This document shows, piece by piece, positions 37,995 through 59,695 of a stretch of 64,000 nucleotides of DNA. The first letter of the stretch is position 1. Every line of letters begins with the position of its first letter. The position numbers and the translations under genes were made by a program. Source of the DNA: Escherichia coli (GTDB lineage Bacteria > Pseudomonadota > Gammaproteobacteria > Enterobacterales > Enterobacteriaceae); assembly GCF_050920415.1 (NCBI RefSeq), contig NZ_CP169309.1. The stretch is one strand, 5' to 3'. Under the pieces are notes generated by a model that saw only the letters and a program-made list of their open reading frames with translations, was not told the origin of the DNA and ran no database searches.

Positions 37995-38864
<870 letters not shown>

Positions 38865-57023: not shown

Positions 57024-58217
57024 ATGACTAAAGTGACACGCGCAGTAATTGTGGGAGGCGGGATCGGCGGTGCGGCAACTGCGCTGTCACTGGCCCGCCA
57101 GGGGATCAAAGTGGTGCTGCTGGAAAAGGCGCATGAGATCGGTGAGATTGGCGCAGGTATCCAGTTGGGGCCAAATGCGTTTTCGGCGTTGGATAGTCTT
57201 GGTGTTGGCGAAATCGCCCGCCAACGTGCGGTATTCACCGATCACATCACCATGATGGACGCGGTGAACGCCGAAGAAGTGGTGCGTATTGAAACCGGGC
57301 AGGCCTTTCGTGACCATTTCGGCGGCCCTTACGCGGTGATCCACCGCGTTGATATTCATGCCTCGGTGTGGGAAGCGGTACTGACGCATCCGGACGTGGA
57401 ATATCACACCTCCACCAACGTCGTGGATATTCGCGAGACGGAAGACGATGTCACCGTGTTTGACGATCGCGGCAATAGCTGGAGCGGCGATATTCTGATT
57501 GGCTGTGACGGTGTGAAATCAGTGGTGCGCCAGAGCTTATTGGGCGATGCGCCGCGTGTCACCGGACATGTGGTCTACCGTGCGGTTATCGATTGTGCCG
57601 ATATGCCGGAAGATTTGCGCATTAACGCACCGGTACTGTGGGCGGGGCCGCATTGTCACCTGGTGCATTACCCTTTGCGCGGCGGCAAGCAGTATAACCT
57701 GGTGGTAACATTCCACAGCCGCCAGCAGGAAGAGTGGGGCGTGAAGGATGGCAGTAAAGAGGAAGTGCTCTCTTACTTTGAAGGGATTCACCCCCGTCCG
57801 CGCCAGATGTTGGATAAACCGACTTCATGGCGACGCTGGTCAACCGCTGACCGTGAACCGGTGGCGAAGTGGGGAACGAAGCGCATAACGCTTGTGGGCG
57901 ATGCGGCCCATCCGGTGGCGCAATATATGGCGCAGGGAGCCTGTATGGCGCTGGAAGATGCAGTAACGCTGGGTAAGGCGCTGGCGCAGTGTGAGGGTGA
58001 TGCGGCGCAAGCCTTTGCGCTGTATGAGTCGGTACGAATTCCGCGCACCGCGCGCATCGTCTGGTCGACCCGTGAAATGGGGCGGGTTTATCACGCCGCA
58101 GGGGTAGAACGTCAGGTACGTAACCTGCTGTGGAAAGGGAAATCGCAGGCAGAGTTTTATCGCGGCATGGAGTGGCTGTACGGCTGGAAAGAAGATAACT
58201 GTTTGCAACCACGCTGA
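57024..58217 (+). CDS. mhbM: 3-hydroxybenzoate 6-hydroxylase (FAD monooxygenase)
   Basis: 397 aa; FAD fingerprint VGGGIGGAATAL; GDAAH motif. Confidence 0.7.
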   Translation: MTKVTRAVIVGGGIGGAATALSLARQGIKVVLLEKAHEIGEIGAGIQLGPNAFSALDSLGVGEIARQRAVFTDHITMMDAVNAEEVVRIETGQAFRDHFGGPYAVIHRVDIHASVWEAVLTHPDVEYHTSTNVVDIRETEDDVTVFDDRGNSWSGDILIGCDGVKSVVRQSLLGDAPRVTGHVVYRAVIDCADMPEDLRINAPVLWAGPHCHLVHYPLRGGKQYNLVVTFHSRQQEEWGVKDGSKEEVLSYFEGIHPRPRQMLDKPTSWRRWSTADREPVAKWGTKRITLVGDAAHPVAQYMAQGACMALEDAVTLGKALAQCEGDAAQAFALYESVRIPRTARIVWSTREMGRVYHAAGVERQVRNLLWKGKSQAEFYRGMEWLYGWKEDNCLQPR

Positions 58218-58375
58218 GCACTTCTTCACCCAATCAGGCGCACGGGCGGTCCCCTCGCCCCTTCGGGAGAGGGTTAGGGTGAGGGAAAAATCTTGCCCGA
58301 ATTAATCAGTAAGTCAGTTTGTCTGCAAACACCAGAGGCGCTAACATAGCGCCTCATTTTTTTGCGGGTGATGAT

Positions 58376-59323
58376 ATGCGTGTGTTACTGGCGCCGATGG
58401 AGGGTGTACTCGACTCTCTGGTGCGTGAATTGCTGACCGAAGTTAACGACTACGATCTGTGCATCACCGAGTTTGTCCGCGTGGTGGATCAACTGCTGCC
58501 GGTAAAAGTTTTTCATCGCATTTGCCCGGAGCTACAAAACGCCAGCCGAACGCCATCCGGTACGCTGGTGCGCGTGCAATTGCTGGGTCAGTTCCCACAA
58601 TGGCTGGCAGAGAACGCCGCCCGTGCGGTGGAGTTAGGTTCCTGGGGTGTGGATCTTAATTGCGGCTGTCCGTCGAAAACGGTTAACGGTAGCGGCGGCG
58701 GGGCGACACTACTCAAAGATCCTGAACTCATCTACCAGGGTGCAAAAGCGATGCGTGAAGCTGTACCGGCGCATTTGCCCGTCAGTGTGAAAGTGCGTCT
58801 GGGCTGGGACAGCGGTGAGAAGAAATTTGAAATCGCCGATGCGGTTCAACAGGCTGGCGCTACGGAGTTGGTGGTGCATGGGCGGACAAAAGAGCAGGGG
58901 TACCGCGCGGAGCATATTGACTGGCAGGCGATTGGCGAGATTCGCCAACGGCTGAATATTCCGGTGATTGCCAACGGTGAAATCTGGGACTGGCAGAGCG
59001 CGCAACAGTGTATGGCGATCAGCGGCTGTGACGCGGTGATGATTGGTCGCGGAGCGCTCAATATTCCCAATCTGAGCCGAGTGGTAAAATATAACGAACC
59101 GCGAATGCCGTGGCCGGAGGTGGTTGCTTTGCTACAAAAATATACCCGTCTGGAAAAGCAGGGCGATACCGGGTTATATCACGTTGCGCGGATTAAACAG
59201 TGGTTGAGTTATTTGCGTAAAGAATACGATGAAGCAACAGAATTATTTCAGCATGTTCGGGTGTTGAATAATTCCCCTGATATTGCAAGGGCTATTCAGA
59301 CCATTGATATCGAGAAACTCTAA
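58376..59323 (+). CDS. dusC: tRNA-dihydrouridine synthase C
   Basis: 315 aa from [16 protein letters not shown] track start 58319 is an extension. Confidence 0.9.
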
Positions 59324-59695
59324 GAAACCATAGTGATGTTTTTTGACAATGTGTTAGCTCTTTATCAATAGGCCGCACGGTTGTTTGGTGGCGTCAAAAT
59401 CGCCGAGGCGTTCCCTGAAGGCCGGGGCAGCCCACATGGATGTGGGCTGAGGGCGCGTTTTACAGGGATGTTACCTCGCGCCCGACCCGGTAGCCGTAAG
59501 GGATAAGCCGAGGGCACCGCGCAGCGGCGATTTTGTTCGCCAGAGCCCGGGGGTGCAGGGGGCGGCGGCGACTGGTCGCCCCCTGCGCGCTCCTTGCGCT
59601 AGTGATTATATGAAGCAATGTACATGACAGGAGCGCAACAGGATGAGAGACTGAAATATTCTCGTTATTTTCGGATCTGATGACGTTAATTAATT

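Follow-up and report, generated by a model that had tools for sequence, protein, structure and literature searches.

A dispersed structured repeat of Enterobacteriaceae, found between dusC and yohP of Escherichia coli, resembles TwoAYGGAY RNAs and carries CsrA-type loops

Introduction

The TwoAYGGAY motif (Rfam RF01731) comprises two hairpins with AYGGAY loops inside an enclosing stem, P1, that is 'often very large'. It is known from Clostridia, gamma-proteobacteria and gut metagenomes, and in the original alignment it was present in multiple copies in Psychromonas ingrahamii (Weinberg et al. 2010, PMC2864571). Gardner and Eldai reported that both loops match the CsrA-binding motif and that the stem contains tandem G.A, and predicted a CsrA-sequestering role (PMC4333381). 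Rfam clan CL00106 holds both TwoAYGGAY and CsrB (RF00018). Here we describe an element of about 255 nt that resembles this motif and lies in the spacer between dusC and yohP in a 64,000-nt stretch of E. coli DNA (contig NZ_CP169309.1). This whole stretch is hereafter called the window; positions refer to its 5'-to-3' strand as given, denoted +. An initial annotation had marked positions 59385-59600 as a GC-rich non-coding stretch with several hairpins, and had proposed a structured small RNA (sRNA) or an uncharacterised repeat family.

Dispersed extragenic repeats are a second point of comparison. REP (repetitive extragenic palindromic)/BIME and ERIC (IRU) sequences are scattered between genes, mostly downstream of them, and give transcripts that can fold; strains differ in how many copies they have. 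The RSA repeat ('BEE95') appears, as quoted in a later paper, as a 152-bp sequence with few copies in K-12 (Bachellier and Hofnung 1996, cited in PMC3751351).

Results

A dispersed repeat family in Enterobacteriaceae

In the window, dusC (58319-59323, +) and yohP (59696-59779, −) are convergent, and the element occupies their spacer. Of 5426 complete E. coli genomes, 5425 matched a 321-nt query, with a median of three and a maximum of eight places per genome, K-12 included; strain MFDS1022581 is 100% identical over the query. The dusC-yohP spacer of K-12 is 98% identical and corresponds to 2229066-2229437, reversed relative to the window. Full-length copies (~215 nt, 82-92% identity) were retrieved from Klebsiella pneumoniae, K. 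variicola, K. aerogenes and Citrobacter, with up to 13 places in one Klebsiella chromosome.

We also scanned one genome per species with a pattern, and sorted true from chance matches using BLAST and a covariance model. Among the matches listed, true copies were found only in Enterobacteriaceae (Escherichia, Citrobacter, Enterobacter, Klebsiella, Pseudescherichia, Pseudocitrobacter, Silvania and one unnamed genus). Pattern matches in other phyla failed the covariance model and were discarded as chance hits, except for two that are probably contaminating contig ends. An E. coli-like copy was seen at the very end of a contig in a Desulfacinum metagenome-assembled genome (MAG; L022, 5222-5356), where contamination or a mis-join is the probable explanation. 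A MAG labelled 'Proteobacteria bacterium' (L068) seemed to hold an ancestral pair of elements at dusC-yohP; this candidate was rejected, as the contig is a chimera that joins the asmA-yegH and dusC copies through the repeat. No match was found in 50,697 phage records, so the element is not a prophage feature.

The E. coli loci that we identified are dusC-yohP, aqpZ-lysO, asmA-yegH and alx-sstT, and K-12 carries at least two intact copies, at dusC-yohP and aqpZ-lysO. The genome record has no repeat feature at the two K-12 regions examined, and a literature search on the dusC-yohP intergenic region found nothing. Two of the four host loci adjoin a gene of the TerC family (alx and yegH), which may be a coincidence. 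The stretch in the window is almost certainly a member of a dispersed, structured repeat family of Enterobacteriaceae.

The fold covaries and belongs to the dusC-sense strand

G+C content reaches 0.705 over 59400-59599, against 0.35-0.58 in the flanks, and the longest open reading frame (ORF) overlapping the stretch is 52 amino acids (aa), in agreement with the initial annotation, which had described the region as unusually GC-rich and free of ORFs of 60 aa or more. The + strand RNA of 59385-59600 has a minimum free energy (MFE) of −127.9 kcal/mol, compared with −102.7 ± 4.4 for shuffled sequences (z = −5.68; 0 of 200 shuffles as good), and the opposite strand folds more weakly (z = −3.55).

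We aligned 59 distinct copies and refined by hand a structure of 48 pairs in ten helices. RNAalifold, applied to the 59 copies, returned 37 pairs and found compensatory double changes in 22 of these. In the 48-pair structure, standard pairs fill 94.2% of the cells, as opposed to 36-42% after the partners are slid by 1-3 columns, although such cell counts overstate the number of independent events because many of the aligned sequences are related. Among these related copies, 28 of the 48 pairs change on both sides, while slid controls give 5-9 and none of 500 shuffles reaches the observed value. The compensations span at least six genera, with several pair types per position.

Cells that depart from Watson-Crick pairing include 62 G.U and 2 A.C, and therefore the fold belongs to the + strand, the sense strand of dusC. 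This signal fits RNA; strand-specific single-stranded DNA (ssDNA) would produce the same signal. We consider it probable that the structure acts as RNA on the + strand. The proposal of the initial annotation was thus borne out as far as a dispersed repeat with covarying stems on one strand is concerned.

Anatomy of the element

The core of the element (59386-59543, +) has a TwoAYGGAY-like fold and is the entire match to covariance model R1 (cmsearch: 179.4 bits, E = 3e-42, full length), the only one in the 64-kb window. At 179 bits, this copy is intact and full length, and not a degenerate fragment of a known repeat or of an insertion sequence end, which the initial annotation had listed as one of the outcomes that would undo its reading. 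The core is preceded on the + strand by an AT-richer 5' flank (59350-59385), delimited from alignments of E. coli copies, which starts 27 nt past the dusC stop. The flank is diverged but common to the copies at dusC-yohP, alx-sstT and aqpZ-lysO, with a consensus of approximately TTTAyMAAnAGnCCGCACGGnTGTTGG. Homology between copies runs from ~59350 to ~59660.

The enclosing stem, on the + strand like all the helices described here, begins with the outer pairs of P0 (59389-59390 with 59541-59542). It continues with P1 (59395-59402, CAAAAUCG, with 59528-59535), in which 98.9% of cells are paired and four of the eight pairs change on both sides, for example from G-C to C-G (columns 10/156) and from C-G to U-A (columns 16/150). 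P2 (59403-59413 with 59502-59513) follows; all five pairs of its helix 3 change on both sides, and it holds an invariant tandem G.A, with G59405-A59406 opposite G59510-A59511. The corresponding columns (20-21 and 129-130) do not vary in the 59 copies and are flanked by covarying pairs. A long-range inverted repeat had been placed at about 59396-59405 and 59525-59534; it is present, and extends over 16 nt (59395-59410 with 59520-59535) with 88% complementarity.

Inside this stem, P3 (59420-59426, GGCCGGG, with 59486-59489 and 59493-59495) closes a fork of two hairpins. It is paired in 96-100% of cells; covariation is silent on this helix because its pairs are invariant, and the same pairing appears in the single-sequence MFE fold. 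Hairpin A (59428-59449) has a 9-bp stem and the loop C-AUGGAU-G, in which C59435 and G59442 close the hexaloop 59436-59441. Seven of its nine pairs change on both sides, the loop is CAUGGAUG in 53 of 59 copies, and GGA is kept in 58 of 59. The arms reported earlier, CAGCCCACAT and ATGTGGGCTG, are perfect over 10 nt and lie at 59428-59437 and 59440-59449, 1 nt from where they had been placed. Hairpin B (59451-59483) has an outer stem GGGCGCG/CGCGCCC (59451-59457 with 59477-59483, as previously noticed), an inner stem ACA/UGU and the loop C-AGGGAU-G (59463-59470). Six of its 11 pairs change on both sides and GGA is found in all 59 copies. The loop is near-invariant, mostly CAGGGAYG, and at least three copies, all from Silvania, have AUGGAU instead.

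A side hairpin, P1a (59517-59527, CCGC-GCA-GCGG), branches off the P1/P2 stem. It is paired in 99.6% of cells, three of its four pairs change on both sides, and its arms occur as CCGC/GCGG, UUGC/GCAA, UCGC/GCGA and CCAC/GUGG.

Downstream of the core, a 3' module made up of a GC-rich hairpin and a stem-loop, P5, occurs in all lineages. The GC-rich hairpin (59553-59588, +) has a perfect 10-bp core, GCAGGGGGCG at 59555-59564 with CGCCCCCTGC at 59577-59586, and the loop GGCGACUG; the stem was correctly recognised in the initial annotation, except that it ends 2 nt before 59588. A hairpin of at least 8 bp stands at this position in 56 of 60 copies; it occurs in many sequence versions with full compensation, and its loop begins with a conserved GGCGR. 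In P5 (59587-59640, +), GCGCUCCU (59587-59594) pairs with AGGAGCGC (59629-59636) over 8 nt with 100% complementarity and closes a variable loop of 34 nt, which is followed by a conserved end, CAAC, at 59640. Other lineages have CGUUCAC/GUGAACG, GCGCUCC/GGAGCGC or GCGCUCU/AGAGCGC in P5, and the loop is ~35 nt throughout.

Apart from those in the two hexaloops, GGA motifs occur at ~59502, 59628 and 59642, the last in a segment that follows P5 (59639-59648, ACAGGAUGAG). ORFs of 3-9 codons led by ATG trail some copies after P5; they are not conserved and were discarded as a candidate small gene. An intact 'solo' copy is therefore the element 59386-59640, ~255 nt long. The stretch 59385-59600 of the initial annotation is real but falls short of the whole element, to which the P5 stem (59587-59594 with 59629-59636) also belongs.

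No U-tract follows the GC-rich hairpin 59555-59586; GCGCUCCUUGCGC is found there instead. A consensus scan of 59200-59900 gave no terminator-like site on either strand and a single promoter-like match, which lies past the element at 59680-59707. The same type of scan, which is weak evidence, showed no sigma-70-like promoter in the 5' flank of the window copy. We rejected a terminator reading given the absence of both a terminator-like site and a U-tract. The structure exceeds what a terminator or a single REP needs, as previously argued: there is no intrinsic terminator, and the element is a multi-branched fold of ~255 nt with ~3 copies per genome. The feature is real and was read correctly in outline from the start.

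Relation to TwoAYGGAY, Csr RNAs and other known families

At gathering thresholds, an Rfam search returned nothing over the window element. TwoAYGGAY matched 59394-59533 with 30.2 bits (E = 0.024 in a 1.4-kb search), below its gathering score of 43. Five other copies, divergent subtypes included, scored 26.7-30.4 bits against the same model, which was the only recurring Rfam match. With a score below the threshold, the element is treated here as a GC-rich variant of this kind and not as a member by Rfam's criterion. The term 'uncharacterised' used earlier must accordingly be qualified by this sub-threshold relative.

The likeness lies in the two adjacent hairpins with A-Y/K-G-G-A-Y terminal loops within a P1 stem, which is sometimes very long. 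In the window, the first loop is a true AYGGAY (AUGGAU, 59436-59441), while the second is AGGGAU, and AGGGAY in most copies, with G rather than Y as the second base. The enclosing stem (P0, P1 and P2) runs from 59389-59413 to 59502-59542 and has many compensatory changes. Both have a tandem G.A in that stem, a likeness by presence, irrespective of its position in the Rfam consensus. Both also occur in gamma-proteobacteria and can be multi-copy within a genome. The elements described here differ from TwoAYGGAY in being far more GC-rich, in the usual AGGGAY of hairpin B, and in having P1a and the 3' module (GC-rich hairpin and P5), which are outside the Rfam model; head-to-head pairs of unlike elements, presented below, are undescribed for TwoAYGGAY.

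The loops match the CsrA-type A(N)GGA(N) hexaloop, and stem-closed CANGGANG hairpins number 2 in the window versus 0.64 in shuffles. The consensus obtained for CsrA by systematic evolution of ligands by exponential enrichment is RUACARGGAUGU, and UUACAGGGAUGU, from hairpin B, agrees with it at 11 of 12 positions. Both CANGGANG hexaloops are predicted to be open in the MFE fold, with GGA exposed as in Csr/Rsm RNAs. Of the two stem-closed CANGGANG hairpins counted in the window, one is hairpin A; the second is at 38015-38032 (+; CTGCGCATGGAAGCGCAG, 5-bp stem), and may be a CsrA-type site or a chance occurrence. The element shares with CsrB, CsrC, McaS and RsmX/Y/Z the presence of GGA in hairpin hexaloops closed by C-G, at 4-5 GGA per element. 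Unlike CsrB and CsrC, with which it has no sequence homology, it has far fewer sites than CsrB. It also differs from the Csr/Rsm sRNAs in being multi-copy, in its 3' untranslated region (3'-UTR) positions and in having no dedicated promoter or terminator in our scans; it does not look like a single sRNA gene. On the comparisons made so far, the element is best treated as a GC-rich variant of the TwoAYGGAY/Csr-clan kind.

Like REP/BIME and ERIC, the element is dispersed and extragenic, lies mostly downstream of genes and varies in copy number among strains. A REP is a single hairpin of ~35 nt and ERIC an imperfect palindrome of 127 bp, whereas the element described here is multi-branched, ~255 nt long, with invariant loop nucleotides and heavy covariation; moreover, REP/BIME sequences have hundreds of copies, compared with ~3-13 per genome here. 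The asmA-yegH copy sits beside genuine REP sequences, which are separate and unrelated to it, and a REP reading was rejected. Integron attC ends were likewise rejected, since the element ends do not fit RYYYAAC/GTTRRRY. No Rfam match to IS621 bridge RNA, omega RNA or retron msr was obtained, and no likeness to these RNAs is apparent.

On size and copy number, the two properties compared, the P1-closed core fits the old RSA repeat, and the element may be the same sequence. If so, the DNA repeat itself is old knowledge. We know of no earlier account, for RSA, of a covarying RNA fold, TwoAYGGAY/CsrA-type loops, pairing or orientation polymorphism.

Solo copies lie downstream of co-directional genes

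Of 27 solo copies, ~22 follow a co-directional gene, whose end lies 48-225 nt before the element on its 5' side. This count relies on crude ORF calls of at least 150 aa and leaves orthologous loci uncollapsed; with the obvious ones collapsed, the ratio becomes roughly 20 vs 4. The positions of the copies point to a 3'-UTR module rather than to an independent transcript, a caveat to the 'small RNA' of the initial proposal.

Head-to-head pairs of two subtypes

In Citrobacter, Enterobacter sp. ENT03, Pseudescherichia, Pseudocitrobacter and Silvania, the elements occur mostly as head-to-head pairs. Pairs were found at ~25 loci, always in the order −,+, and separated by AT-rich, partly palindromic spacers of 37-206 nt. 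Each pair combines an element of the window type ('type A') with a divergent subtype that keeps the same architecture and scores 37-75 bits, or ~145-160 bits for the Citrobacter 'type B'. Both arms retain their own strand-specific fold, and the outer ends of the pairs are similar (GTTSCGYTC...). Pairs are located between convergent genes in eight cases, tandem genes in ten and divergent genes in two.

The seven paired units of Enterobacter sp. ENT03 are 91-95% identical over 420-630 bp, which indicates recent spread or homogenisation. Promoter and terminator scans of two paired loci (L045 and L058) gave nothing convincing, with no sigma-70-like promoter in the spacers. An ENT03 spacer contains a weak terminator-like hairpin followed by 7 T (L058, 9738-9757, −), which reads towards the type-A arm and is present in five of the seven units. 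Resemblances to a sigma-54 promoter and to a UvrY/GacA box in an ENT03 spacer were dismissed, as they are not conserved between copies. In Citrobacter youngae, a pair is followed after ~160 nt by an rnk leader (RF01771, 122 bits; L079, 9705-9813), so that this pair precedes a regulated leader and not a 3' end.

Turnover and orientation of the E. coli copies

At dusC-yohP, 3317 genomes (~61%) are colinear with the window over 801 nt, and 5372 hold the element. Most of the non-colinear genomes appear to carry an inverted allele, which was checked directly in one representative: strain 5132 (L136, 304-740) has an intact copy (173 bits) on the opposite strand of the spacer, with different junctions. 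The allele boundary falls inside dusC, whose product ends in ...IDIEKL* in the window (59303-59323) and in ...IDIDKLR* in the inverted allele (L136, 304-327). In the latter, a perfect 13-bp hairpin (GATAAGCTGCGAT...ATCGCAGCTTATC) spans the dusC stop codon. Here, as at aqpZ-lysO and asmA-yegH (below), the two orientation alleles are ~10% diverged and have different junctions; they are old alleles and not the states of a phase switch.

Comparable variation was observed at the other three loci. K-12 and O157:H7 carry opposite orientations at aqpZ-lysO, where a third strain has an internally deleted copy. The common allele at asmA-yegH is inverted with respect to a rare one. The asmA-yegH spacer of some strains (H106, H107) also contains RelE/ParE toxin and helix-turn-helix antitoxin genes, which marks this spacer as a general insertion hotspot. 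At alx-sstT, 1668 of the 5426 E. coli genomes carry the element, and K-12 has an unrelated segment in its place; in K-12 C3026 (L007, ~600-990) this segment has a boxC-like palindrome rich in CT/GA (CTCCCTCTCCC...GGGAGAGGG...). No target-site duplication was found at the junctions of the four polymorphic E. coli loci.

Genes surrounding the dusC-yohP spacer

Directly upstream of dusC, the window has a gene for 3-hydroxybenzoate 6-monooxygenase (57024-58217), which adjoins maiA and a fumarylacetoacetate hydrolase gene and suggests a gentisate-type pathway. The corresponding neighbours of dusC in K-12 are yohJ-yohK, and dusC looks like the boundary of a strain-specific island. Beyond yohP, mdtQ is an unbroken ORF of 487 aa in the window (59913-61376). 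It is a pseudogene in K-12, and the annotation of the identical RefSeq strain calls it 'incomplete; missing C-terminus'.

Discussion

The window copy belongs to a repeat family whose fold covaries on one strand, resembles TwoAYGGAY and tends to follow the end of a co-directional gene. Since there is no terminator between the dusC stop and the element, we infer that it is transcribed as the 3' untranslated tail of dusC. Two GGA hexaloops ~30 nt apart could then form a two-site (bidentate) target for a single CsrA dimer, to which the additional GGA motifs at ~59502, 59628 and 59642 might contribute. Such an RNA would tie CsrA to the host transcript and change its stability or decay, or it could soak up CsrA as a decoy. 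We hold with about even confidence the proposal taken as a whole, namely a transcribed 3'-UTR RNA module with a two-site CsrA target. The choice of CsrA as the partner is a tentative prediction, in which our confidence falls somewhat short of even.

Several observations weigh against this proposal. No copy in 12 loci passes the TwoAYGGAY threshold. In some divergent 'type C' copies, hairpin B no longer has its GGA, and the K-12 copy at aqpZ-lysO is antisense to both of its neighbours. In the integrated-omics table for CsrA of Potts et al. 2017, dusC is marked 'No' in all four binding/target columns, although this table may miss 3'-UTR or intergenic peaks and poorly expressed genes. Two CsrA sites leave the tandem G.A, P1a, the invariant P3, the GC-rich hairpin and P5 unexplained. 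Finally, near-identical copies within a genome, head-to-head pairs and orientation polymorphism look like the marks of a selfish or mobile element.

The last point can be developed into an explanation of its own, in which the family would be a selfish, non-autonomous element of the foldback or miniature inverted-repeat transposable element (MITE) type. A complete unit would then be a head-to-head pair of ~600-750 bp, solo copies would be half-elements left after the loss of an arm, and the hairpins would serve transposition or recombination, for example as ssDNA. Like MITEs and foldback elements, the repeats are non-coding, multi-copy and near-identical within a genome, as illustrated by the seven ENT03 units (91-95% identity over 420-630 bp). 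The ~25 paired loci, always −,+ with partly palindromic spacers, form units that are palindromic overall and have similar outer ends. Mobility would also account for the presence, absence and replacement alleles at alx-sstT (1668 of 5426 genomes), for the two orientations found at dusC-yohP, aqpZ-lysO and asmA-yegH, and for a copy number of 1 to 13 per genome. However, no copy is accompanied by a transposase or any other gene, in a search for autonomous relatives that was not exhaustive; no junction examined has a target-site duplication, and none of the 50,697 phage records has a match. The short terminal inverted repeats usual in MITEs are not present, and the arms of a pair are always of different subtypes. 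The internal hairpins and loops covary across genera, beyond what terminal inverted repeats need, and both the 62:2 ratio of G.U to A.C and the bias towards positions downstream of genes point to RNA, even if ssDNA would give the same excess of G.T. We regard this explanation as rather unlikely; it is, in any case, compatible with an RNA function.

An RNA function need not involve CsrA either. The element could be a generic 3'-end module, comparable to REP/BIME or ERIC, that blocks 3'-5' exonucleases or read-through between convergent genes, with GGA loops that are incidental and have no specific partner. Copies do lie downstream of genes, often convergent and rarely divergent ones (2 of 20 pairs). 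The fold is extremely stable (−127.9 kcal/mol), dusC and yohP lack intrinsic terminators in our scan, and the asmA-yegH copy adjoins genuine REPs. Stability alone, however, does not need invariant loops, a tandem G.A and fixed junction nucleotides, all kept in at least six genera while the stems vary, and the architecture is far more complex than that of REP or ERIC; we think it unlikely that a generic role is the correct explanation. A still smaller probability attaches to an independent sRNA gene, which would be driven from within the AT-richer 5' flank by a promoter of its own; in the pairs, two RNAs would diverge from the central spacer. The partial conservation of the 5' flank between copies and the arrangement of paired copies, facing away from a common AT-rich spacer, would agree with it, as would the aqpZ-lysO copy of K-12, which, being antisense to both neighbours, would need its own promoter. 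Nevertheless, scans for sigma-70-like promoters were negative both upstream of the window copy and within the L045 and L058 spacers, some spacers (37-55 nt) leave no room for two promoters in opposite directions, the element is not followed by an intrinsic terminator, and solo copies are biased to positions just downstream of a co-directional gene. We find this explanation improbable.

Returning to the 3'-UTR module with two CsrA sites, the pairs allow a broader and far more speculative formulation. The family could be a hitherto unrecognised class of portable RNA modules, self-contained folds of ~255 nt that equip the 3' tail of any gene reading into them with a two-site CsrA target of high affinity, and that spread in head-to-head pairs of unlike subtypes. 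Such unlikeness would keep the arms from pairing with each other; it is a matter of speculation that unlike arms would thereby avoid a perfect long palindrome in DNA and long double-stranded RNA in read-through transcripts, which could be why the arms differed in subtype in each case examined. Between convergent genes, a module could come to lie in either orientation, as is observed at substantial frequencies at three E. coli loci, and a change from one to the other would hand the module, and any Csr-dependent control with it, to the other neighbour. We consider it quite improbable that this formulation holds in full.

K-12, the best-annotated bacterium, thus holds a large RNA fold with covariation as strong as that of many curated Rfam families, whose copies are unannotated in the records examined and captured by no Rfam model. 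With a new covariance model, annotation pipelines could label such regions. The head-to-head pairing of subtypes and the orientation polymorphism at three loci may point to a new mode of element movement or maintenance. If the GGA hexaloops bind CsrA, the Csr regulon would include dispersed, strain-variable 3'-UTR elements, and the orphan TwoAYGGAY motif would gain a testable function in a tractable organism.

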